Below are positions 1,531-60,079 of a stretch of 64,000 nt of DNA, piece after piece. This stretch comes from Eubacteriales bacterium (GTDB lineage Bacteria; Bacillota; Clostridia; Oscillospirales; CAG-272), in the NCBI GenBank assembly GCA_045656885.1, contig JAZORZ010000001.1, forward strand, positions 12,366 through 76,365. Direction: 5' to 3'. The position numbers and the translations under genes were made by a program. Under the pieces are notes generated by a model that did no database searches, was not told where the DNA came from, and saw only the letters and a program-made list of their open reading frames with translations. Each line of letters opens with the position of its first letter. Positions within the stretch are counted from its first letter, which is position 1.

Positions 1531-3183
1531 ATGAAACGCATTACCAGAATTCTCGTTTTGTTGTTGGCTTTGTGCATGGTGGTTGCTTGCTTTGCTGCAT
1601 GTAACGACAACAAAAAGCCCGACAAAAAACCGGCTCCCAATACGGGAGACAACAATGGTGGCACTACTCCGAATGAAGTAGAGGATGTTACCACTCCCGA
1701 TCCCGGCCCTCAAATTGAGATGCCCGAGGTTATTGATATGGGTGGTTTTACTTACCGCGCATACGTTCGTGATCAAGCCGGCACCAGCCCCGATGCTCAT
1801 AAGGCACAAGTTGCAAACGGTAACAACGACTACCGTTGCGTTGACTTTTGGGTAGACGAAGCAAACAGTGAAAACGACTTTATTTCGTTTGCTGTTTATG
1901 ACAGAAACAAGAAGATCGAAGCAACCTACAATTGCAAGATCAGACAGGTATCCTCCGACGGTAGCCAGATCGAGCATCTGCTTGCTTCCTTTACCAATGG
2001 CGACAGCTATGACCTTACCATCATCACTGCAAAGCCCGCAGCACAGGCAGCAACCCAAAACCTGCTCCGCAACCTTGCGGATCTGGAGCACCTTGATCTC
2101 AAACACGCATCCTTTGACCAAAATGCTATTGATGAGCTTCGCGTTGGCGATAAGCTTTACTTCACCAGTGGTGATATGAACATTTCCACCATGGACGTTG
2201 CAGGTCTTTCCATTGTTAATATGGAGTTCTACAACAACATTGTTGAAGACATCATCAATACTTTTGGCGGTGATGTTTCTTATAATAACATCTTCAACGT
2301 TGTTCTTAACAAAAAGTGGACAATGGAAACCTTGTTGACCATTGCAACGATTGCAAACGTTGACGCAGGTCAGGACGGCGGCGAGCTCCACGTTCTCCCC
2401 GACGGTATTGTAGGTGGTGTAGAGGTTACCAATAAGTATGTTGGCGGTGATATCGTTGGTTACCATCAATATCTCTATTCCGCTCTTTGGTATTTCTACG
2501 GCTCCGGCGGTCGTATTACCGAAAAGAATGAAGAGGGTCTTCCCGAGTTCGTTATCCAAAACAACCTGGGTCAAACCCTATACGACTACATCTTTGAAAA
2601 GTTCAATCGTGAGATCAATGCTCCTTGGATTCCTCACGAATCCTCTAACATTCTCAACAAGAACTTCCTCACCGGTGACGTTCTGTTTGCAGACTGCTCG
2701 CTCTTCAACGTAAGAACCGAGATCTATCCCTTTGCAGAATTTGAGTACGGTATTCTTCCTATTCCTGTTTACGAAGCAGGAATGGATTACAAGAGTGTTG
2801 TTTACTTCAACAACTGGGCACACCTTTGGGCAATCCCCAACCTGGTAAACGATAACCTCGAATACTCCTCCCGTATGATGCAAATTATGGCAGTTTACTC
2901 CAGCTTGCCGGAGTCTACCATGCATGCATACTATGATAGAACCATCTACTTCCAAGCAGCTGCCGACAACGGATCCCGCGACGTTATGGATATCATCAGA
3001 ACCTCTTTGGTTTACGACCTTGCACTTCTGTATCCCTCTTGGGGCGCTATTGAAGAAAAGCTCTACCAAATTCCCAACAGACAAGAAAAGGAATACGCAT
3101 CCGGTATCATTGACGGTCTTAGTCGTATCGAAGAATCGATGCATGACACCATTGAGACTCTCTTGAGTCCTGAGGTAGGATAA
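1531..3183 (+). CDS. Extracellular solute-binding-like lipoprotein, paralog B
   Basis: 550 aa. The N-terminus MKRITRILVLLLALCMVVACFAAC has a signal peptide and a lipobox Cys. RBS aaaaggag lies upstream. It is paralogous to the preceding ORF along its full length. A terminator follows. Confidence 0.65.
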   Translation: MKRITRILVLLLALCMVVACFAACNDNKKPDKKPAPNTGDNNGGTTPNEVEDVTTPDPGPQIEMPEVIDMGGFTYRAYVRDQAGTSPDAHKAQVANGNNDYRCVDFWVDEANSENDFISFAVYDRNKKIEATYNCKIRQVSSDGSQIEHLLASFTNGDSYDLTIITAKPAAQAATQNLLRNLADLEHLDLKHASFDQNAIDELRVGDKLYFTSGDMNISTMDVAGLSIVNMEFYNNIVEDIINTFGGDVSYNNIFNVVLNKKWTMETLLTIATIANVDAGQDGGELHVLPDGIVGGVEVTNKYVGGDIVGYHQYLYSALWYFYGSGGRITEKNEEGLPEFVIQNNLGQTLYDYIFEKFNREINAPWIPHESSNILNKNFLTGDVLFADCSLFNVRTEIYPFAEFEYGILPIPVYEAGMDYKSVVYFNNWAHLWAIPNLVNDNLEYSSRMMQIMAVYSSLPESTMHAYYDRTIYFQAAADNGSRDVMDIIRTSLVYDLALLYPSWGAIEEKLYQIPNRQEKEYASGIIDGLSRIEESMHDTIETLLSPEVG

Positions 3184-4183: not shown

Positions 4184-4774
4184 ATGGCAGACGTATATGA
4201 AAGAACCTTGCAATCCCTTGTAGGACGGCATACTGCCACGCTGTGCGTATTATTGGGAATGCTGCTGTTGCTTTTACTCATTACATGGATTTTTCCTGTT
4301 CTCTATAAAAGGGTTAAGGCGGATAAGATCAAAAGCAAGTGGCTTAGTGTTGCACTTATTCTTCTGTTTTCGGGTGCAAAAGAACCTAAAAAGGGCAAAA
4401 AGGGAAAGACATCAATGCTGTTGGCACAATGTATTGTAACCTTGATTTTTGTTGGCATTATGATGCTTGGCATGATTCCGTCTATACAGGAAATTCAACT
4501 TTTGAAGAAGGATATTGCCGAAAACGCTTATATCACTTACGAGGGGGAATATTCGATTGGCACAAAATATTCGAGGGAGTACAATATTGGCGACTTTTGG
4601 CTTGACGAACGTTTTATTACACTAACGGACAGTAATGAGAGCGTGCAAGTTGATGCAAGCGGTACATTTTTGAAGTTCCCCGACCATTATTCAGAAAGCC
4701 ACGGCACCGTTATTTACGGCAAGCATAGCAAACGCATTATCTACATAGATGGTCTTGAAGGCCTTTGGGAATAA
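4184..4774 (+). CDS. Hypothetical membrane protein
   Basis: 196 aa. RBS aaggagacaac. Two to three hydrophobic helices separated by a KKGKKGK patch. No recognisable family. Confidence 0.55.
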   Translation: MADVYERTLQSLVGRHTATLCVLLGMLLLLLLITWIFPVLYKRVKADKIKSKWLSVALILLFSGAKEPKKGKKGKTSMLLAQCIVTLIFVGIMMLGMIPSIQEIQLLKKDIAENAYITYEGEYSIGTKYSREYNIGDFWLDERFITLTDSNESVQVDASGTFLKFPDHYSESHGTVIYGKHSKRIIYIDGLEGLWE

Positions 4775-4779
4775 AAGAA

Positions 4780-4815
4780 CCCCGCAAATGCAAAAGCATT
4801 TGCGGGGTATTTTTT
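4780..4815 (+). terminator. Rho-independent terminator
   Basis: ccccgcaaatgc aaaa gcatttgcgggg followed by tattttttt. Confidence 0.8.
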
Positions 4816-4835
4816 AAGAACAAACTAACTTTAGG

Positions 4836-4969
4836 ATTCCCCTTGAGGGGAAGCTCCCGCGGAACGCGGGTGATGAGGTGACGGATGCGAAGCATCCGCA
4901 GAAACGATAAGTACTAAAAAATCACCTCATCCGGCTCGTAATACTCGCCACCTTCTCCTCAAGGAGAAT
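4836..4969. repeat. Composite palindromic element: two inverted family-A-like arms around a GCGAAGC mini-hairpin
   Basis: Left arm 4836-4881 is attccccttgaggggaagctcccgcggaacgcgggtgatgaggtga. The reverse complement of the right arm 4922-4969 is attctccttgaggagaaggtggcgagtattacgagccggatgaggtga. The central hairpin is cggatgcgaagcatccg (4882-4898). Confidence 0.7.
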
Positions 4970-4992
4970 GCTTTTTGTATCATTACCCTGTA

Positions 4993-5027
4993 ATCCCCCC
5001 CGGCGAACTATGCTCGTCGGGGGGGAT
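4993..5027 (-). terminator. GC-rich hairpin downstream of the radical-SAM gene (possibly bidirectional)
   Basis: atcccccccggcga ... tcgtcgggggggat. The U-tract is poor on the minus strand and T-rich on the plus strand. Confidence 0.35.
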
Positions 5028-5039
5028 GTGTGTATTTGA

Positions 5040-7658
5040 TTATTTGAACTCCGTCACACCGTCATCGGTGTAAACGTTGGTACGTAGAATGGAGTAGCAC
5101 TCCTTTGTAGGGTCACCCGAAAGGATGCCAAGGCGCTCCTTTGCAGCGGCTATGAGCATTTCGGGGTTGAGGTTTTCGGTGTTGCCCGCGCGCAGAATTG
5201 CCGTGATAGCAATCTTTCCGTTCTCGGTGCAAGTTGTCTTGCAATCGCGAATCATTTGTGTCAGGTCAACCTCACGCTCGCCCGACTTGGATTTTTTCAT
5301 TACCAAAAGGGGAGAGGTCGTAAAGAGATCTTGCAGCTCTTGTGCCATCTCAGCATCAGCACCGGCAAAGTTGAGCGCGATCTCATATCTTGCCCAAGCG
5401 ATGTCGGCAAATTTGCTTGTCGGCTCGTAGGCATCGAGCACCTGCATCTCATCGGTCAGCTCACGGTTGAGCAGATCTTTCAGCTCCTCGCAAGGAATAT
5501 TGCGGTCAACGCGCAAGTCGATGAACTCGCACTCGCTCTCGGTACCAACCGAGAGGGGAAGTCCAAACACGACCTTTGCATGGGGATTGAAGCCCTGCGT
5601 GTACCACATGGGAATGTTGGCACGCACAAGCACGCGCGCAATGGTACGTTGCAGATCGAGGTGCGATATGTATTGCAGATCTCCCACCTTGCGGAACTTG
5701 ATACGAACGATGCGAGCACCCTCGGTAATGGGTTCCCAAACGTTCTTGTCTTGCTTTTGCGGCAGGGGAGCATCGCTTTCGGTTTCTTGCATTTCCTTGC
5801 AGCCGGGGCAAACGGCACGCACGCCGCCAAGCTTGTTGGCACCGCACGCCGAGCAATGCTCGCGGCAGTTGGGAGTGGTGGCTTCACCGTATGCCTTTGC
5901 TTGCTCGCGCAAGAAGAACTCCTTACTTACGCCGCAATCAATAATGTCCCAAGGCAAAATCTCGTCGTTGCCAAACTTGCGGTTGGCGTAGAACGCAGGG
6001 TCAACCCCCGTACGCTCAAAAACAGAGAGCCATTTGTCATAGTCGAAATATTCATCCCAAGCATCAAACGCGAATCCCTCTTGGCAAGCAAGCTCAAGTG
6101 CGTCACCGAGGCGACGGTCGCCGCGAGCGAGAACTGCCTCAATGCGCGATACCTTTGCATCGTGGTGTACGTAGCGAATGTGCTTGTTTTTGATCTTGGA
6201 TTTGAGATATTCTTGCTTTTCGGCAAGCATTTCCATCGTGTCCTGTGCCTCCCATTGGAAGGGGGTAAAGGGCTTGGGAATAAAGCAAGAAACGCTGACC
6301 GTTACCTGAACGGGGCGTGCTTTGTTGCGGTTGGGATTTTGATAGTAAGCATCCACCACGTGCTCGGCAAGGGTAGCAATGCCTTCAATGTCCTCAAGCG
6401 TTTCGGTGGGCAGGCCGTTCATAAAGTAGAGCTTGACCGAGTTCTTACGTGCGTCAAACGCCACGTTTACGGCACGCATAACATCCTCCTCGCGCACATT
6501 CTTATTGATAACGTCGCGCAGTCTTTGTGTACCCGCCTCGGGGGCAAAGGTCAAAGAGGAAGAACGCACCGACTCAATGCGGCGCATCAGATCCTTATTA
6601 AAGCTATCTACGCGAAGAGAGGGCAGAGACAAGCTGACCATATTATCATCGGTCCAATTCAAAAGCTTGTCGCAAAGGGGTTCAAGAGAAGTATAGTCGC
6701 TGATGGAAAGAGAAGCCAAGGAAATTTCCTCGTATCCCGTAGAGTTGTAAAGTGCTTTTGCTTGATGGTTGAGCACGTCGGCGCTTTTCTCGCGCACAGG
6801 TCGGTAAACCATGCCTGCCTGACAGAAGCGGCAGCCGCGAATGCAACCGCGATAGACCTCAAGCATAATGCGGTCATGCACCGTTTCAATGTAGGGCATA
6901 ACCACCTTGTCGGGGAAGTAGACCTTGTCAAGGTCACCAATGATCTGCTTGGTTACCTGACGCGGAATATCGTCATAAACGGGAGTGTATGCCTTGATGG
7001 TTCCGTCCTCGTTGTAGGTGACATCGTAGAGCGAGGGAACGTAAACACCGGGAATGGTTTTTGCCGCCTCGTGCAAAAAGTCAGCGCGCGTGTAGCGACC
7101 TTCCTCTTTCATTTGCACGTAAAGGCGAACGATAGCGGGGAGCATATCCTCGCCCTCGCCAATGTTGAACAGATCAAAAAAGTCTGCAATCGGCTCAGCG
7201 TTGTAGGAGCAAGGACCGCCACCGATAATAATGGGATCATCCTCACGTCTGTCCCTTGTACGCAAGGGAAGCTTTGCCAGAGAAAGCATATTGAGCACGT
7301 TTGTGTAGCACATTTCGTACTGCAAAGTAAAGCCGATAAAGTCGAATGCCGAGAGCGGATCGCCGCTCTCAAGTGCGGTCAGGGGCAGGTCGTGCTCGCG
7401 CATCTTTTCCTGCATATCCGTCCAAGGGGTAAACACGCGCTCGCACCAAATGTCGGAATGCGCGTTGAGTGCACCGTAGAGCAGGCGCATACCCAGGTTG
7501 GACATACCGATCTCATACGTATCGGGAAAGCAGAAAGCAAAGCGCGCCTTTACGTTCTCTTTATTTTTGATGATCTCACCGTACTCGCCGCCAGCATATC
7601 TGCCGGGCTTTGAGACCGATTTGAGAATGGTACTGTTGAGTTTGGTAGAATGGTTCAT
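5040..7658 (-). CDS. Fused radical SAM protein: B12-binding-domain rSAM (TIGR03960-like) plus C-terminal DUF2344/TIGR03936-like module
   Basis: 872 aa. N-terminus SKPGRYAGGEYG...FCFPDTYEIGMSNLGMRLLY. Cys triad YRGCIRGCRFCQAG. C-terminal RIKFRKVGDLQYISHLDLQRTIARVLVRANIPMWYTQGFNPHAKVVFGLPLSVG is typical of DUF2344. Confidence 0.75.
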   Translation of the reverse strand: MNHSTKLNSTILKSVSKPGRYAGGEYGEIIKNKENVKARFAFCFPDTYEIGMSNLGMRLLYGALNAHSDIWCERVFTPWTDMQEKMREHDLPLTALESGDPLSAFDFIGFTLQYEMCYTNVLNMLSLAKLPLRTRDRREDDPIIIGGGPCSYNAEPIADFFDLFNIGEGEDMLPAIVRLYVQMKEEGRYTRADFLHEAAKTIPGVYVPSLYDVTYNEDGTIKAYTPVYDDIPRQVTKQIIGDLDKVYFPDKVVMPYIETVHDRIMLEVYRGCIRGCRFCQAGMVYRPVREKSADVLNHQAKALYNSTGYEEISLASLSISDYTSLEPLCDKLLNWTDDNMVSLSLPSLRVDSFNKDLMRRIESVRSSSLTFAPEAGTQRLRDVINKNVREEDVMRAVNVAFDARKNSVKLYFMNGLPTETLEDIEGIATLAEHVVDAYYQNPNRNKARPVQVTVSVSCFIPKPFTPFQWEAQDTMEMLAEKQEYLKSKIKNKHIRYVHHDAKVSRIEAVLARGDRRLGDALELACQEGFAFDAWDEYFDYDKWLSVFERTGVDPAFYANRKFGNDEILPWDIIDCGVSKEFFLREQAKAYGEATTPNCREHCSACGANKLGGVRAVCPGCKEMQETESDAPLPQKQDKNVWEPITEGARIVRIKFRKVGDLQYISHLDLQRTIARVLVRANIPMWYTQGFNPHAKVVFGLPLSVGTESECEFIDLRVDRNIPCEELKDLLNRELTDEMQVLDAYEPTSKFADIAWARYEIALNFAGADAEMAQELQDLFTTSPLLVMKKSKSGEREVDLTQMIRDCKTTCTENGKIAITAILRAGNTENLNPEMLIAAAKERLGILSGDPTKECYSILRTNVYTDDGVTEFK

Positions 7659-17030: not shown

Positions 17031-20000
17031 TTATTTTACCGTGCCGCTATCAAGCGTCTTTTCGGAGATCTTACCGCGTTTGCCGTGAGGAATAGGAGCT
17101 TCCTCTTCATCGGTCTGCTTCTTAGCAAGCTTCTTCGCCTTTCTGTCGGCGCGCTTGTCTGTCTTGGTTACGGGTTCAACAACAGCTTCTGCAATTTCAG
17201 CTTCGGTTGCAATTGCGCCTTCTTCAAGAGCCATTTGCTTCTTCGCTTCAATCAGAGCATCCTTTTCAGCGTCGATGAGTGCCTTCTTTTCAAGCTCAGA
17301 TTCAGCACGTGCCAAAGCGGTTTTCAGAGCTACCAATTCTGCCTCGAGGATATCGAGTCTTGCTTGTTGTTCGGTTGCTTCCTTGCCTGCCTTAGCGGCC
17401 TTTTGTGCCTTGGTTACACCCTTCTTCTTTGCCTTGATGATGGCTTGCTTTTGAGCTTCGAGAATGGTGAGCTTTTCAAGATCGCTTTGTGCTGCGGCGT
17501 AAGCTTCGTCGTAACCGGACATTTCAGCTTCAAATACTTCTTGTTCAGCATTCTTAACTTCGATTTCCTTTTGTGCCTTAAGCAACGCGCGCTTTTCGAT
17601 GTCAATCAGCTTTTGCTGTTGTTCTGCGTTTTCTGCAGCGAGGAGGGCAGCGTTAAATGCTGCAATACCCTTAACGAGTTGCTCATCGTCCTCATTCTTG
17701 GTCAGGCCACGTTTCTTAGCGCTGATGATAGCATCCTTTTGCTCTTCAAGCAGCTGGTTCTGCTCGGTGCGAGTCTTTGCATTTGCCAAAGCAGTGTTGA
17801 GATCGGACATCTCGGCCTCGAACTCGGTATACTTTTGCGCTTTTTGAGGTTGGAGCATAGCTTTCTTTTCGGTTTCGATGATAGCTTGCTTTGCCTCGGG
17901 AGTTTGTGCAGCAGCGAGAGCAGCATTGAACTTGAGAACTTCTGCGTACAGACGGCTGTTTGCAGCATCGTAGTTCTTGGGCAGGCCCTTTTGAACTCTC
18001 TTTTCCTTGAGGAGAGTTTGCTTTGCACCGTCAACAATAACCTGTTGTTGCTCAGGAGTTTGTGCAGCGGCCATAGCAGCATCGTATTGAGCCATCTTGG
18101 TTTCAAACTCAGATACGGGAACCTCGGGAGCGAGCATTTGAGTAACTTCAGCTGCAACAACTGCTTGCTTTTGCTGTGCAGTGGGTTGTGCGTTATAAGC
18201 GGCAAGGAATGCTTGAACTTCCTTTTCTACAGCTGCAACGCTACGGGACTTGGTAACGGTAATGCCTTGCTTCTTAGCATTAACGACAACTTGCTTTTGT
18301 TGTTCTACAACTGCCGCTTGTTGAGCAGGAGTTGCAGCAACAGTGTAAGCACGGTCGAGATTGCTCATTTCGGTTGCGAAGTGCTTTTGTTCTGCAGTTT
18401 CTACAGGAATTTGTGCATATACAGGAGCTTGAGTATATACGGGAGTAAGCATTTGAGCAGTTTCATTTGCAATAACTGCTTGTTTTTGTTGTGCAGTGGG
18501 TTGTGCATTGTAAGCATTCAGGAATGCTTGAACTTCCTTTTCTACCTTTGCAACATCACGAGACTTGGTAACGGTAACACCCTGCTTTTTGGCCTTAACA
18601 ATAGCTTGCTTTTGTTGCTCCATAACAACCTGCTGTTGAGCAGGAGCTGCCGCAACGGTGTAAGCGTTGTTGAGTCTGTTCATTTCTCTTGCGAAGCTTT
18701 CTTGCTCGATGGTTCTTACGGGAACCTGAGTGTAGATCGGAGCTTGCTGTTGGTATACAGGAGCAGGCATTGCCTGTCTTTGTGCGTTGATAAGAGCATA
18801 CTTATCAGCGGGGGTTCTTGCTGCGTTGTAAGCAGCGTTGAATGCAACAACATCTGCCATGTACTTTTCTTCAACAGGATTATAAGTGCCGCGTGCCTTG
18901 CTCTTCTTTGCCTTGATGATGGCTTGCTTTTCAGCTTCGATAATAGCAGCTTGTTGCGCGGGAGTAGTTGCATGGCTATATTGGTTGTTGAGTGCAGTCA
19001 TTTCACTCTGGAAGGTTTGTTGATCTCTGGAGAGAACAGGAGCACCTGCTTGGAGCATTGCCTTCTTTTCGGCTTGAATGATAGCGTGCTTATCTCTGGG
19101 AGTGTAAGCAGCAGCGTAAGCAGCATTGAATGCCTGAACCTCGCGTGCAATCTTATCAACAGAGCTGTTGTTACGCTTCTTAGCATTGATGATGGTTTGC
19201 TTTTGAACGTCAAGAATTGCTCTCTTTTCGTCGTCGGATCTAGCAGCTCTGTAAGCGGTGTCGAGAGTGTTCATCTCAGCTGCAAACTGCATCTGCTCGG
19301 GAGTCTTAACTCTAGCGGTAGAGGGCTGCAGCATTGCTCTCTTTTCGGTTTCAATAACTGCCTGCTTTTGAGCGGGAGTTCTTGCTGCCTGCATTGCTCT
19401 GTTGAATTCGTTGATCTCAACGTCGGAACGGCTGGGAGCGCTGGGAGCAGCAGAATAGTAAGCTATGCGGTCTCTTTCAACGTCGATAATACGTTGTTGC
19501 TCTTCAAGGGTGGAAGCAGCGGCAAGAGCAGCATTAAATGCTCTGATTTCTGCTTCGAGCTGTGCCAAGCTTTCGTCGGGAGTGAGATCACGGGTCTTTC
19601 TGGCTTTTTGCGTTTGAATTTCGTAAGCAGCAGAGGTGGACTGTACAGGAGCGGCAGCAGCGAGTGCCTTTTGTTGGGTAACAATTTCGGCTTGCTTTTC
19701 GCCCTCGAGTTGTTGCTCGATCTTTGCTTCGGTAATAGCACTTTGGATATACTCTTTCTCTTCGGGAGTTTGAGCAGCTTCCAGAGCCATATTGAGGGCC
19801 ATAAGCTCTGCTTGGATTCTTGCCATCTTAGCGGCGCTCTTATCTGCTTTCTTTTGCAGCTTAGCAGCTTCCTTATCTCTCTTCTTTTGCTCCTTAATGC
19901 GGAGCTTGAGCTCTCTGCGGCCAACCTTGGTGTCAGCATAACGCTCACCCTCGTCGGCATACAGGATTTGCTCGGTTTCAGCAGCAACCTCGCTGTCGAG

Positions 20001-20504
20001 AACGGGTGCATCTGCCTCGAGAATGAGTTGCTCGCGATACTCGTCTGCAAGCTCGGGTTGAACGTCAACATCAACGTCAACATCAACATCGGTGTTAGAG
20101 GTGGATTCCTGGTAACCGTTTTGAATAACGTTCTTAATACGACCGATGATGTCGGGGGAGTTGTAGATCAGGTCTGCAACAACCTCTACAGGGGTGAGCT
20201 TTTCCGACGTCATGGGGATCATATCCACCTTACCCTCGGGAGTGATGGTCAAAAAGCCAACGGGAACTACGCTTACGCCGGTTCCGCCGCCGCCACCAAA
20301 GTTTTTCTTTCCACCGTCATCATTTTTGGTGGGCAGATCCAGGCCACCGGAGGCAAAGCCCATAGAGAGCTTAGAAATCGGAATAATTACCATTCCGCTA
20401 GAGGTAACGATCTGCTTACCTACAATAGTGTCCGCATCAATAATGGTGCGTACTTGTTCCAGCGAATTTCGGATTATTTCCTTGATAGAAGATTCGTTTT
20501 CCAT
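17031..20504 (-). CDS. GerW/YtfJ-family sporulation domain fused to ~960 aa of tandem helical repeats
   Basis: The N-terminal ~100 aa (IKEIIRNSLEQVRTIIDADTIVGKQI...IIPISKLSMGFASGG...GGGGGTGVSVVPVGFLTI) match GerW/YtfJ. A (DV)5 tract follows. I count at least 17 repeat units of two alternating types. RBS aaagga. The start overlaps the ytfI-like stop by 31 nt. Confidence 0.8.
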   Translation of the reverse strand: MENESSIKEIIRNSLEQVRTIIDADTIVGKQIVTSSGMVIIPISKLSMGFASGGLDLPTKNDDGGKKNFGGGGGTGVSVVPVGFLTITPEGKVDMIPMTSEKLTPVEVVADLIYNSPDIIGRIKNVIQNGYQESTSNTDVDVDVDVDVQPELADEYREQLILEADAPVLDSEVAAETEQILYADEGERYADTKVGRRELKLRIKEQKKRDKEAAKLQKKADKSAAKMARIQAELMALNMALEAAQTPEEKEYIQSAITEAKIEQQLEGEKQAEIVTQQKALAAAAPVQSTSAAYEIQTQKARKTRDLTPDESLAQLEAEIRAFNAALAAASTLEEQQRIIDVERDRIAYYSAAPSAPSRSDVEINEFNRAMQAARTPAQKQAVIETEKRAMLQPSTARVKTPEQMQFAAEMNTLDTAYRAARSDDEKRAILDVQKQTIINAKKRNNSSVDKIAREVQAFNAAYAAAYTPRDKHAIIQAEKKAMLQAGAPVLSRDQQTFQSEMTALNNQYSHATTPAQQAAIIEAEKQAIIKAKKSKARGTYNPVEEKYMADVVAFNAAYNAARTPADKYALINAQRQAMPAPVYQQQAPIYTQVPVRTIEQESFAREMNRLNNAYTVAAAPAQQQVVMEQQKQAIVKAKKQGVTVTKSRDVAKVEKEVQAFLNAYNAQPTAQQKQAVIANETAQMLTPVYTQAPVYAQIPVETAEQKHFATEMSNLDRAYTVAATPAQQAAVVEQQKQVVVNAKKQGITVTKSRSVAAVEKEVQAFLAAYNAQPTAQQKQAVVAAEVTQMLAPEVPVSEFETKMAQYDAAMAAAQTPEQQQVIVDGAKQTLLKEKRVQKGLPKNYDAANSRLYAEVLKFNAALAAAQTPEAKQAIIETEKKAMLQPQKAQKYTEFEAEMSDLNTALANAKTRTEQNQLLEEQKDAIISAKKRGLTKNEDDEQLVKGIAAFNAALLAAENAEQQQKLIDIEKRALLKAQKEIEVKNAEQEVFEAEMSGYDEAYAAAQSDLEKLTILEAQKQAIIKAKKKGVTKAQKAAKAGKEATEQQARLDILEAELVALKTALARAESELEKKALIDAEKDALIEAKKQMALEEGAIATEAEIAEAVVEPVTKTDKRADRKAKKLAKKQTDEEEAPIPHGKRGKISEKTLDSGTVK
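17217..19814 (-). repeat. Intragenic tandem repeat array (about 35-45 codon units, two alternating subtypes)
   Basis: Type A is xVxAFNAAxxAAxTPxxKQAIIxxEKKAMLQ. Type B is FxxEMxxLxxAYxxAxTPxQQxxxxExQKQAIxKAKKxG. The most recent duplication is visible at DNA level around 18130-18440 versus 18440-18720. Confidence 0.85.
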
Positions 20505-48972: not shown

Positions 48973-48988
48973 TCTCAAATTCCTGTAG

Positions 48989-49044
48989 ACAATCCCTCAG
49001 TCAAATGACTACGCATTTGACAGCTCCCTTTACACAAGGGAGCC
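48989..49044 (-). repeat. Family-A palindromic repeat, copy A1 (inverted relative to A2 and A3)
   Basis: The reverse complement reads ggctcccttgtgtaaagggagctgtcaaatgcgtagtcatttgactgagggattgt. Confidence 0.85.
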
Positions 49045-49130
49045 ATACCGTAATGTAGCTGCATTATTTTGTTCAGTAAACAACTTTACAAAAATTGATT
49101 TGATAACTTTGGAGCAAAGCCCAACCAAAT

Positions 49131-49182
49131 GCCTCCCTTGTGTAAAGGGAGGTGGCACGCGATAGCGTGACGGAGGGATTGT
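49131..49182 (+). repeat. Family-A palindromic repeat, copy A2
   Basis: gcctcccttgtgtaaagggaggtggcacgcgatagcgtgacggagggattgt. Confidence 0.85.
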
Positions 49183-49273
49183 GATTCAAAGAAATACTTC
49201 TGTATTGTTCCTGTTCAGCAAACCGTTTATAACATTTATTTCAATCAGTTTAGCGAAAAGCTTACCCCAAAAG

Positions 49274-49325
49274 GGCTCCCTTGTGTAAAGGGAGCTGTCA
49301 GCCGAACGGCTGACTGAGGGATTGT
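49274..49325 (+). repeat. Family-A palindromic repeat, copy A3
   Basis: ggctcccttgtgtaaagggagctgtcagccgaacggctgactgagggattgt. Confidence 0.85.
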
Positions 49326-49351
49326 AAAAAACAATCCCCATTTATCTTTTT
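49318..49351 (+). terminator. Terminator-like hairpin formed by the A3 tail and a short partner
   Basis: gggattgt aaaaa acaatccc followed by catttatcttttt. Confidence 0.3.
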
Positions 49352-49542
49352 CGGTATTATGAGGCATTGCCTCACAATATATAAAACTTGTTATTCTTCC
49401 CACGGAAGCCACGCCGCGAGATGAATGCATAAAAACCATAAGATTTTTCGGCGATGAAATCTTACGGTAAACCATCGCCAAAAATCACATTCCCTCGGGT
49501 TAGGGAAGAATAATCTTTTTTCTAAAGAAAGGAATTCCTACT

Positions 49543-50208
49543 ATGAAGAAAAACGTAATGATGAGAGTTGCTTCCGCTTTGTTGGTAGCAGTTCTGATGA
49601 CAACCTGTGCTATTTCCGGCACTTTCGCAAAGTACACCACCAATGCAACCGGTTCTGATACTGCTCGCGTAGCAAAGTTTGGTGTTACAATTACTGCTAA
49701 TGGCGAAACATTTGCAACATCCGAAGAGGGTCTTGTTAATGGTGTAACCGCAAATACCGTTCTTTCTGCTGACACCGATAACGTTGTTGCTCCTGGCATG
49801 AGTGGCTCTATGGCGAAGATGACCCTTACCGGTACTCCTGAAGTTGCCGTTAAAGTTACTTATCAAGCTACTTTGACACTTTCTGATAATTGGCTTGTAG
49901 ACTCCGTGTACTATTGCCCCATTATCATTAAAGTTAATGGTACGTCTTTCAAGGGTGCAACCTATGCTTCTGCAGCTGAATTTAAGGCAGCTGTTGAAGG
50001 AGCAATTAATGCCTTTACTAAAGAGTATGCAGCTGGTACCGATCTTTCCACAGTATCTGCGGAATCTCTTGAAGTAACTTGGGAATGGGCTTATTTTGTT
50101 GATGAAGCTACTGACTTAAAGGACACCAAGCTTGGAAATCAAGCCGCTGCTGGTAATGCAGCTACTATTGAGCTGACCGTAAAAACCATCGTAACCCAAA
50201 TCAACTAA
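49543..50208 (+). CDS. Secreted TasA/BsaA/camelysin-like protein with a SipW-type signal peptide (putative fibre subunit)
   Basis: MKKNVMMRVASALLVAVLMTTCAISGTFAKYTT fits the SipW-cognate pattern (hydrophobic core, then GT-aromatic-A-x-aromatic-T/S). A Thr/Val-rich beta-type sequence follows. The C-terminal motif LEVTWEWAYF...D.KDTKLGNQ is shared with the next ORF. Confidence 0.6.
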   Translation: MKKNVMMRVASALLVAVLMTTCAISGTFAKYTTNATGSDTARVAKFGVTITANGETFATSEEGLVNGVTANTVLSADTDNVVAPGMSGSMAKMTLTGTPEVAVKVTYQATLTLSDNWLVDSVYYCPIIIKVNGTSFKGATYASAAEFKAAVEGAINAFTKEYAAGTDLSTVSAESLEVTWEWAYFVDEATDLKDTKLGNQAAAGNAATIELTVKTIVTQIN

Positions 50209-59731: not shown

Positions 59732-59767
59732 GAAAGCGAACGAATATAAACCAATAAACCCACTGTC

Positions 59768-59997
59768 TGTCATCCTGAGCGTAGTCGAACTTTTACCGAG
59801 TGAAGAACGAGGTAAAAGCGCGAGCCACAAGGCGAAGCGGGATCTCGCTTGAAATCTTGGTGGCTTTTTCACGGGATGTAACATTCACTTTGGCAAGAGA
59901 CAGAAATTCGTTAGGAGATCCCTTCTAAACGCGAAGCGTTTTTCGGTTCTCTCCTCGCTATTCGCTCAGAGAAATTTCGACTTCGCTCAGGATGACA
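59768..59997. repeat. Family-D MITE-like element bounded by a 22-bp inverted repeat
   Basis: The left end is tgtcatcctgagcgtagtcgaa (59768-59789). The reverse complement of the right end (59976-59997) is tgtcatcctgagcgaagtcgaa. The interior is densely hairpinned and has no ORF of its own. Confidence 0.7.
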
Positions 59998-60079
59998 TAC
60001 AGAGGTTTTGTTGGTTAATGTTCGTTTGTTTTTTAGAGGGAAAGTTTCCCCAAAAAAACGAGTTTGTTTTGAATACTGA

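Follow-up and report, generated by a model that had tools for sequence, protein, structure and literature searches.

Background

The question addressed here is what kind of genetic element is represented by the palindromic two-hairpin repeats that occupy two intergenic regions in a stretch of 64,000 nucleotides (nt) from a bacterium of the order Eubacteriales (GTDB lineage Oscillospirales, CAG-272; assembly GCA_045656885.1, contig JAZORZ010000001.1, positions 12,366 to 76,365); this whole stretch is hereinafter called the window. The initial annotation of these repeats, which are located around 4.8 kb and 49 kb of the window, portrayed them as copies of one dispersed family arranged in the manner of repetitive extragenic palindromes (REPs) and bacterial interspersed mosaic elements (BIMEs), or of miniature inverted-repeat transposable elements (MITEs). 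The sequences are as that annotation described them, to within 2 nt, and its interpretation as a whole is partly supported. On the reading that we favor and consider moderately probable, the window copies are gene-less units of a family of triplex-type repeats whose complete form brackets a gene for a DUF559 endonuclease; that they belong to this family and are orphans within it appears to us highly probable. In particular, judging from sequence comparison, the segment 4834-4971 is a gene-less tail-to-tail heterodimer of type-A units, and the copies at 49 kb are units of type B from the same superfamily.

Unit anatomy and covariation

Degenerate patterns for the 3' halves of the units were used to search collections of viral and species-representative genomes. 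Type A was found at 11 viral loci and in at least 120 stretches of the species-representative genomes, and type B in at least 120 stretches of viral contigs; the dereplicated set comprises 437 copies with 273 distinct hairpin-2 sequences. The named hosts are mostly gut and rumen Clostridia (Oscillospiraceae, Acutalibacteraceae, Lachnospiraceae, Faecalibacterium, Ruminococcus), along with four cultured Bifidobacterium species that are rich in copies (up to 4 per 8 kb) and with Bacteroidota (Bacteroidales, Lentimicrobium, Segetibacter) that carry a form with a short hairpin 2.

Read on its folding strand (F strand), the unit consists, in succession, of a pyrimidine arm, a loop of 4-5 nt and a purine arm, which together make up the Watson-Crick hairpin 1, followed by a T, hairpin 2, a junction base denoted Z and a purine-rich tail. 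The start, (a)(a)A-G-X-C, and the end, the purine tail, are sharp, with the information content dropping to ~0 within 3 nt on both sides. The foot of hairpin 1 is formed by the pair X-X', and the linker between the hairpins, given as AGCT in the initial annotation, is actually X'-T, that is, GCT or GGT. Within hairpin 2, G.T is more frequent than A.C (30 vs 8), and a g.T pair is found at the hairpin-1 foot in 374 of the 437 copies; this asymmetry shows that the folding strand is one particular strand.

Hairpin 2 is hypervariable and GC-rich but covaries, as expected under the earlier claim that the structure, rather than the sequence, is conserved in this dispersed family. At least four nested pairs are present in 232 of the 273 distinct sequences; among 40 type-A copies of equal length, 98.3% of the cells are paired, compared with 42-54% in slid controls, and all six pairs vary on both sides, with none of 500 shuffles matching the observed value. 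The loops are mostly of the C(GNA)G or C(GNNA)G form: of 129 triloops, 89 have the sequence GNA and a C-G closing pair, and most of the tetraloops are GNNA. The same motif, GCGNAGC/GCGNNAGC, is described as an extra-stable DNA mini-hairpin (PMC13037366). Compensation is real across the family, but the stronger claim, that every change in a stem is matched on the opposite strand, goes slightly too far for the window copies: hairpin 2 in the right arm of the 4.8-kb pair is imperfect, and that of one 49-kb unit (A2) contains a G.A mismatch.

The 3' part of the unit, which had been taken for a constant flank, instead mirrors the hairpin-1 purine arm, with which it covaries as a third strand. When the tail is read antiparallel, the purine arm/tail combinations include AAGGGAG/GAGGGAT, GGAGAAG/GATGAGG, AGGGGAG/GAGGGGT and GAGGGAG/GAGGGAG, as well as GGGAGAG/GAGAGGG, AAGGGGG/GGGGGAT and GAGGGGG/GGGGGAG. 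Under the triplet rules of the purine motif (PMC2532714), 68 of the 77 positions in 11 purine-arm types are allowed (G.GC, A.AT or T.AT), against 46.5 +/- 4.1 with permuted tails, and 0 of 100000 permutations reached 68; this test, with one entry per arm type, yields the most conservative figure, given that related sequences inflate shuffle-based statistics. The allowed triples are specific to the register, with a fraction of 0.63 at shift 0, 0.31-0.43 at the other shifts and 0.475 in the parallel control. The search patterns behind the repeat-first loci already specify a portion of the purine arm and of the tail; therefore the triplex test, like the nuclease test described below, was run on a structure-only scan (a pyrimidine-first hairpin, a T and an adjacent hairpin, with the tail sequence unused) and on a protein-first sample.

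A further linkage involves X, X' and Z, which were left free by the search patterns, so that the linkage was not imposed. The X-X' pair is G-C with T at Z (C-subtype) or C-G with G at Z (G-subtype) in 491 of 536 copies, and the rule is true within every purine-arm type, in both A and B. In the shift-0 register, Z falls over X-X', with G on the C-G pair and T on the inverted pair, which would explain the three-way linkage; Beal and Dervan are said to have reported in 1992 that T is preferred over a C-G inversion in the antiparallel motif. Going by this covariation, the tail and Z behave as would the third strand of an antiparallel purine-motif triplex, such that a single strand could form about eight base triples, and hairpin 2 would be the connecting loop that returns the tail onto hairpin 1. 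We consider it likely that the triplex-type fold is a selected feature.

DUF559 genes bracketed by units

When the 845 open reading frames (ORFs) located within 1.5 kb of units were clustered, the clusters consisted of phage genes from redundant prophages and of one small protein family that recurs in six different genomes. This family is PF04480, DUF559 (E-value 8.6e-31; 106.5 bits, with the cut-off at 20.6). The partner suggested in the initial annotation, a REP-associated tyrosine transposase (RAYT) of the IS200/IS605 Y1 type, is not found beside the units, and there is no transposase family among the 15 largest of these clusters, a search that covered neighboring ORFs and not whole genomes; the recurring neighbor is the DUF559 endonuclease gene. 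In the repeat-first sample, all eight DUF559 genes adjoin units, and four of them lie inside a tail-to-tail pair of units, called by regular expressions, that are 312-356 nt apart (loci L142, L134, L206 and L188, of which L134 and L206 are near-identical); around others, degenerate arms are visible by eye. The upstream unit lies on the gene strand, with its tail (GAGGTGA) just 5' of the ATG and tail-to-start distances that cluster at 4-13 nt, and this left tail supplies the Shine-Dalgarno sequence of the bracketed gene. The downstream unit is reversed and located at or over the stop codon. The genes enclosed in this manner encode proteins of 115-130 amino acids (aa).

The protein-first sample consists of 77 distinct genes taken from metagenomes by protein similarity. 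A full bracket surrounds 24 of these, and a unit is present on at least one side of 67 if both hairpin 1 and the tail are required, or of 74 if hairpin 1 only is required. Wherever both flanking units could be typed, they are never mixed (31 A/A, 4 B/B, 0 A/B). The sequence identity of the nucleases also follows the unit type, at 0.60 for A-A, 0.76 for B-B and 0.54 for A-B comparisons (0 of 2000 permutations). Type-B units bracket a sister clade of DUF559 proteins (...GGAGGGATTGTAATG...), and the C-terminus of this clade is encoded by the reversed downstream unit.

The DUF559 homologs number at least 7995 and are stand-alone proteins of 114-145 aa, many of them encoded on very short contigs. 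The nuclease matches the structures 3HRL (E 2.7e-17) and 3R3P (E 0.005), the latter being I-Bth0305I, a proven homing endonuclease (PMC3239194); residues D51, E62, D64 and D77 do not vary, and H68 hardly varies. With its PF04480 match, its alignment to 3HRL and 3R3P and its conserved acidic and histidine catalytic positions, the protein resembles 3HRL and the Vsr/EDxHD homing endonucleases. Unlike these homing endonucleases, DUF559 is a stand-alone domain of ~120 aa without an extra DNA-binding domain, and its gene is located outside introns and inteins and has structured repeats on its flanks. In a survey of programmed inversions, 'DUF559 domain-containing protein' appears as one of the enriched targets (PMC9881135), which the flanking inverted units would explain. 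Our literature search found no paper linking DUF559 to repeats, and a search with the repeat sequences themselves yielded no relevant paper.

Among the units of the repeat-first sample, ~5% adjoin a DUF559 gene. Most copies are orphans, namely singles, head-to-head or tail-to-tail dimers of opposite subtype, and small arrays (loci L226, L240 and L145), which bears out the REP/BIME-like arrangement noted in the initial annotation. The spacers span 8-57 nt in head-to-head and 5-83 nt in tail-to-tail dimers, and 52 of 58 short inverted dimers combine opposite subtypes, where about 50% would be expected. No DUF559 gene was detected in 19 Bifidobacterium loci with sensitive profile searches. Singles and head-to-head dimers cannot originate from deletion of the gene in place; therefore the gene-less units must propagate or persist independently. 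Types A and B have 17 identical hairpin-2 sequences in common, occur together in mixed A/B dimers, follow a single linked-position rule and adjoin one gene family; on these grounds they belong to one superfamily, and the kinship of the 4.8-kb and 49-kb repeats, previously proposed from their architecture, is corroborated.

Downstream of the DUF559 genes in loci L268 and L289, we observed tandem modules of a reversed tail plus a reversed hairpin 2, in three copies, followed by a single reversed hairpin 1; the sequence (aaccctcatcagtcagctgcgctga) occurs three times in L289. Duplication of modules by slippage is therefore possible.

The window copies

A relaxed scan of the 64 kb returns exactly five copies of the ~48-55-nt unit, two of type A (4834-4971) and three of type B (~49 kb). 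The type-A pair sits between convergent genes, one (4184-4774) for a membrane protein of 196 aa and the other (5040-7658, minus strand) for a radical-SAM protein of 872 aa, both with a hairpin of their own beside the stop codon. Its left arm, on the plus strand at 4834-4881, is of the C-subtype (X=G at 4835, X'=C at 4854, Z=T at 4871) and reads gGaTTCCCC-TTGA-GGGGAAGCT / CCCGCG-GAA-CGCGGG / T-GATGAGGTGA, with the pyrimidine arm at 4836-4842, the loop TTGA at 4843-4846, the purine arm GGGGAAG at 4847-4853, hairpin 2 at 4856-4870 and the tail at 4872-4881; as folded single-stranded DNA, it has a free energy (dG) of -12.6 and a z-score (z) of -4.05. The spacer of 40 nt between the two tails contains, at 4882-4898, a mini-hairpin, CGGATGC-GAA-GCATCCG, that resembles hairpin 2 and is of the C(GNA)G type; locus L190 has a compensated homolog of it, CGGACGC-AAC-GCGTCCG, after a type-A tail. 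The right arm, on the minus strand at 4922-4971, is of the G-subtype (X=C, X'=G, Z=G) and reads gCaTTCTCC-TTGA-GGAGAAGGT / GGCGAGTATTACGAGCC / G-GATGAGGTGA, with the tail at 4922-4931, a decayed, imperfect hairpin 2 at 4933-4949, the purine arm GGAGAAG (minus strand) at 4952-4958, the loop at 4959-4962 and the pyrimidine arm at 4963-4969. As folded single-stranded DNA, this arm has a z of -1.7, and 7/7 of its triples are allowed.

The three type-B units lie in a gap of 570 nt that separates a sipW-like gene for a signal peptidase from a tasA-like gene. Their general form is gXCTCCCTT-GTGTA-AAGGGAGX'T, hairpin 2, Z-GAGGGATTGT, and CTCCCTTGTGTAAAGGGAG is identical in all three copies (3 matches vs 0 expected from 100 shuffles). 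Unit A1 (48989-49044, minus strand; C-subtype; z -6.8) begins 17 nt past the stop codon of the sipW-like gene and has the hairpin-1 arms CTCCCTT/AAGGGAG, the reversed tail ACAATCCCTC and the reversed hairpin 2 GTCAAATG..CATTTGAC. Unit A2 (49131-49182, plus strand; G-subtype; z -5.6), which reads gCCTCCCTT..AAGGGAGGT, hairpin 2 GGCACGC-GATA-GCGTGAC, G-GAGGGATTGT, stands head-to-head with A1 at a distance of 86 nt and is of the opposite subtype. Unit A3 (49274-49325, plus strand; C-subtype; z -5.1), with hairpin 2 GTCAGCC-GAAC-GGCTGAC followed by T-GAGGGATTGT, is a direct repeat of A2, 91 nt further downstream. An extra plus-strand hairpin at 49318-49338, in which the A3 tail (GGGATTGT) is joined by AAAAA to ACAATCCC ahead of a T-rich stretch, could be the remnant of a partner tail or a terminator.

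The initial annotation had described inverted pairs and a solo copy; the inverted pairs are indeed there, but they differ in orientation, 4836-4969 being tail-to-tail and 48989-49182 head-to-head. Both dimers are heterotypic. Folded as single-stranded DNA with ViennaRNA, which takes in hairpins only and no triplexes, four of the five units beat their shuffles (z -4.1 to -6.8, with 0/200 shuffles equal), and the entire stretch 4836-4969 (z -6.2) beats all 200. All five units have 6-7 of 7 allowed triples in register.

Presence and absence at the two loci

The 4.8-kb locus was compared through relatives of the protein encoded next to the pair. In four independent assemblies (L344-L347) of a relative with 84% identity, the site is empty: 38 nt separate the genes, and the sole intergenic element left is the common terminator, a terminator-like hairpin with a T-run that belongs to gene 4184-4774 (4780-4815, plus strand, in the window). 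By contrast, the same site in a relative with 66% identity (L350) is occupied by a tail-to-tail pair, with the left flank and the left arm as in the window but with a longer spacer and a different right-arm hairpin 2. The G/C hairpin CCCCCCCGGCGA..TCGTCGGGGGGG found in the window beside the stop codon of the radical-SAM gene (4995-5025) is missing from the empty-site relatives and has a different hairpin as its counterpart in L350. At the 49-kb locus, the relatives keep the leader of the tasA-like gene, with a different unit type upstream (ACCTCCC-TCC-GGGAGG, GGACCAC-GATA-GTGGT, GGAAGGAG); at the orthologs of window positions 48973-49330, this type occupies 1240-1400 in L352/L353 and 1170-1240 in L355/L356.

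Several side observations pertain to these loci. The two arms of the 4.8-kb pair have the same C>A change (window 4836 and 4969) at the third pyrimidine-arm position, which results in an A.G mismatch in hairpin 1; in the ortholog L350, both arms have C at this position, leaving the pyrimidine arm intact. This symmetry suggests that one arm has converted the other. The other-type unit of L352 is interrupted by ~100 additional nt. The leader of the tasA-like gene (window 49495-49545) contains a sequence similar to hairpin 1, TTCCCT-CGGGTT-AGGGAA, and, 18 nt later, GAAAGGA, the Shine-Dalgarno region of the gene, which agrees with a mirror tail at 6/7 positions; the feature as a whole is kept in the relatives L352 and L355 and may be due to chance or may be an old, domesticated unit.

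Relation to BoxC/PIT/TMECO repeats

The closest known counterpart of these units is the E. coli repeat named BoxC, PIT or TMECO, CCCTCNCCC-N3-6-GGGNGAGGG-N3-GGGNGAGGG (Holder et al. 2015, PMC4666352; also Hoyne and Maher 2000). The isolated strand of TMECO folds into a stable intrastrand triplex by circular dichroism (CD) and nuclear magnetic resonance (NMR); the repeat has 23 intergenic copies in MG1655, without strand bias, its inverted pairs always combine one type A and one type B (of TMECO), its loci are locally more unstable, and it shows neither promoter nor terminator activity nor any link to mobile elements (PMC4666352). The units described here have the same succession of pyrimidine arm, purine arm and mirror purine arm, i.e., that of a class II purine-motif intrastrand triplex. 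They are likewise intergenic, multi-copy and free of strand bias, have two subtypes that pair in inverted dimers, and share with TMECO an apparent propensity of their loci for small deletions and the lack of a known function. They differ in that the second 'loop' is a complete, hypervariable hairpin of 11-45 nt, not 3 nt, in that the arms are 7-8 nt, not 9, with many sequence types, in that the hosts are Clostridia, Bifidobacterium and Bacteroidota, and in that the units bracket DUF559 genes. The published triplex search covered loops of 1-6 nt only and would have missed these units because their second connector is a T plus a hairpin of 13-45 nt; the paper makes no mention of Firmicutes, endonucleases or ycjD (PMC4666352). 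By their layout, then, the units appear to be a new, hairpin-looped variant of the BoxC/PIT/TMECO class, not plain members of it, given that the length of the second connector falls outside the 1-6 nt of the ITxF definition. Of the outcomes that the initial annotation had named as fatal to its proposal (few copies, no covariation, a known element), none was found outright, with the described BoxC/PIT class partly accounting for the units.

The surroundings of ycjD, the only DUF559 gene shown in the E. coli K-12 region inspected (L358, NC_000913.3 1351040-1351830), merit separate mention. The gene is preceded by an inverted repeat, TTCACCTCATTCTGACAA..TTGTCAGAATGAGGTGA, that contains ATGAGGTGA, the tail/Shine-Dalgarno motif seen above; a degenerate CCCTCTCCC..GAGGGGG hairpin includes the stop codon of ycjD and is followed by a partial duplicate of the 3' end of the gene. 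About 150 nt downstream of ycjD, there is a BoxC/TMECO-type repeat (CCCCTCGCCCCTCTGGGGAGAGGGTTAGGGTGAGGGG); every one of the 5426 E. coli genomes contains this repeat, with a median of 16 sites each. These features hint that the link between DUF559 and triplex repeats reaches the Proteobacteria.

A possible mechanism and its alternatives

How might such units spread? Conceivably, they act at the DNA level as a folded single F strand, with the triplex and the mini-hairpin, that is exposed in replication, repair or recombination, and the DUF559 nuclease would recognize or nick the folded units, the conserved g.T foot and the junction base Z being candidate recognition points for a Vsr-like enzyme. 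Through the activity of the nuclease, the cassette and, in trans, orphan units would be copied, much as REPs are by RAYT. The cassette would then be a selfish element, the heterotypic dimers would serve to avoid long perfect palindromes, and the window copies would be orphan ends with no dedicated host function and, at most, side effects on local stability and transcript ends. The proposal that DUF559 is the mobilizing enzyme is a tentative one, possible rather than probable. The broader view, that the DUF559 proteins are cognate nucleases of BoxC/PIT-type triplex repeats in a REP/RAYT-like partnership that spreads the cassette and the gene-less units across phyla, is more doubtful still.

The units resemble REP, BIME and REPIN sequences in being short, structured intergenic repeats that occur as singles, dimers of both kinds, heterotypic dimers and arrays, and the REP/RAYT system in that a single small protein gene lies between two inverted units and in the implied single-strand-specific folding. 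Unlike REPs and REPINs, they lack a GTAG or CGTC tag and have a triplex-type third segment, and the protein associated with them is a PD-(D/E)XK nuclease of the Vsr-like kind instead of an HUH Y1 transposase such as RAYT; furthermore, they cross phyla, unlike REPIN-RAYT systems, whose inheritance is reported to be mostly vertical. With MITEs, they share the correspondence of the tail-to-tail dimer to the two ends of a gene-carrying parent without the gene, as well as the length of ~138 nt, the intergenic location and the variability among relatives. The differences from MITEs are that no target-site duplication or clean boundary is seen, that the parent has no recognized transposase, and that single arms and head-to-head dimers equal the tail-to-tail form in frequency.

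A number of observations weigh against the reading that we favor. At 4.8 kb, the filled and empty alleles differ by ~225 nt, including the flanks and the second hairpin, no clean insertion boundary or target-site duplication is seen, and the pattern among the relatives fits deletion as well as insertion, the difference being no less similar to the small deletions that Holder et al. describe around TMECO than to an insertion. The commonest type-A arm, GGGGAAG, with the tail GATGAGG, has one mismatch, i.e., 6/7 allowed triples, and the tail also fits a generic Shine-Dalgarno sequence, so that its conservation near genes could be partly translational. The TMECO triplex was seen only in isolated single strands, not in duplex DNA or by in vivo dimethyl sulfate (DMS) footprinting (PMC4666352). 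Some DUF559 genes have no units, e.g., in Butyrivibrio AC2005 and in ~10% of the protein-first sample, and sensitive profile searches detected no DUF559 gene in the 64-kb window. Finally, the orientation statistics cited below depend on a crude ORF caller, which labeled ~35% of the units 'intragenic', mostly at ORF edges, and was used for orientation alone.

The location of the DUF559 gene exactly between the two tails in bracketed loci can also be explained in a different way, if the units spread or persist by slippage, recombination or an unknown enzyme, and DUF559 is a homing-type gene that targets the center of existing tail-to-tail dimers. An empty dimer would be cut and the gene copied in by repair that uses the arms as homology, and 4834-4971 would be an unoccupied site, not a decayed cassette. 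Empty tail-to-tail dimers are indeed common, the relationship of DUF559 to the catalytic domain of I-Bth0305I is compatible with homing, its homologs are very numerous and diverse, and the co-divergence of nuclease clade and unit type fits either the cassette or the homing model. Nevertheless, the singles, head-to-head dimers and arrays, which make up most of the copies, as well as the arrival of units in several phyla, are left unexplained, and we consider homing improbable. Less probable again is the possibility that the host has selected the units as structural DNA elements, for instance as pause sites of replication or transcription, as binding sites for proteins or as bidirectional terminators, roles of the kind proposed for REPs, and that DUF559 genes merely borrow from them expression signals such as the Shine-Dalgarno sequence and transcript-end hairpins. 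The units are intergenic, often beside terminators, the tail is a good Shine-Dalgarno sequence, and effects of REPs in 3' untranslated regions are documented. Yet, by the crude ORF calls, there is no preference among convergent, divergent and tandem intergenic regions and no orientation bias (type-A units in tandem regions: 27 same, 30 opposite), close relatives do without the element, PIT/TMECO has no promoter or terminator activity, and near-identical modules across phyla point to horizontal, selfish behavior.

The remaining two explanations are still weaker. Hairpin covariation, wobbles that are G.U-compatible on one strand and the tail acting as the Shine-Dalgarno sequence of DUF559 genes would all be expected of a structured RNA, such as a cis-regulatory leader, a stabilizer or a small RNA. 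However, the units occur in both orientations relative to the neighboring genes and in inverted dimers, the two loci yielded only chance-level matches to Rfam at E-values up to 10, and the hairpin-2 loops are of the DNA-type GNA/GNNA form, unlike typical RNA tetraloops (PMC13037366); moreover, the third-strand covariation follows purine-motif rules, and such triplexes are stated not to form in RNA (PMC4666352). An RNA-level role accordingly strikes us as very unlikely. A classical REP/REPIN mobilized by an IS200/IS605-type RAYT, as envisaged in the initial annotation, would account for the intergenic palindromes, for both kinds of dimers and the BIME-like arrays, and for the inverted units flanking a gene, which is the REPtron layout; but the flanked gene is DUF559, not PF01797, no transposase stands out among the clustered neighbors, and each unit has three covarying segments, unlike a REP. 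Furthermore, REPs are palindromes of 20-40 nt with a conserved GTAG or CGTC tag on one end (PMC3733652), and neither tag is found at the sequence-determined unit boundaries, so that this explanation is hardly credible. The RNA-level, RAYT-REP and purely host-structural readings thus fit the data less well.

Several further candidates were tried and rejected. The tail ...CTGATGAGG resembles the CUGAUGA core of the hammerhead ribozyme, but there is no Rfam match, half of the copies have CGGATGAGG, and no GAAA is found in register. A switch between anti-Shine-Dalgarno and Shine-Dalgarno sequences, or a tail that forms Watson-Crick pairs with the pyrimidine arm, works in part for type B and fails for type A, and gave way to the third-strand relation; no helical register fits an IS200/IS605-style pairing of guide and cleavage site as the source of the X/X'/Z linkage. 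CGTC-tagged REPs have other stems, loops and tails, with no Firmicutes listed (PMC3733652), and attC, CRISPR, tRNA and tmRNA have the wrong layout.

Other features of the window

The window contains no tRNA gene, and the families of Rfam 15, including hammerhead, gave 0 matches over the 64 kb at the gathering score; exact look-ups of the window's own proteins returned no match. Mechanical ORFs run through the units at 4737-4895 (minus strand, 52 aa) and 49245-49481 (minus strand, 78 aa), with sequence such as ...IPQSAVRLTAPFTQGS..., and peptides encoded by units may be a source of annotated hypothetical proteins in such genomes. The intergenic region 59733-60032 harbors an inverted repeat whose two arms of 80 nt are 80% complementary and separated by 140 nt and which contains tgtcatcctgagcg..tcgaac-type sequence; this looks like a separate dispersed family. 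Elsewhere in the window, an ORF of 1157 aa (17031-20504, minus strand) is made up of many diverged internal repeats with a period of ~270-320 nt (families D1-D4), and the plus-strand genes 249-1493 and 1531-3183, the latter coding for a lipoprotein-like product of 550 aa, are adjacent paralogs with blocks of 70-79% identical DNA at an offset of 1693 nt (families D6, D7 and D10).

Implications

Since they became known in the 1990s, the BoxC/PIT/TMECO repeats have had no origin, partner protein or function assigned to them, and DUF559 is a very large nuclease family, with E. coli YcjD among its members, to which no function has been assigned. The link between DUF559 and the repeats gives both sides a testable hypothesis, namely, a nuclease that acts on folded triplex-plus-hairpin DNA. 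Clostridia of the gut and rumen, as well as some Bifidobacterium genomes, frequently contain the units. These mark intergenic sites that differ between close relatives and may create spurious ORFs; the presence of many DUF559 homologs on very short contigs may mean that assemblies break at units. Covariation of base triples over at least 10 sequence types is a rare kind of evidence for non-B DNA and, if the cognate-nuclease reading is true, the three-strand covariation would be comparative evidence for in vivo selection of intrastrand DNA triplexes.

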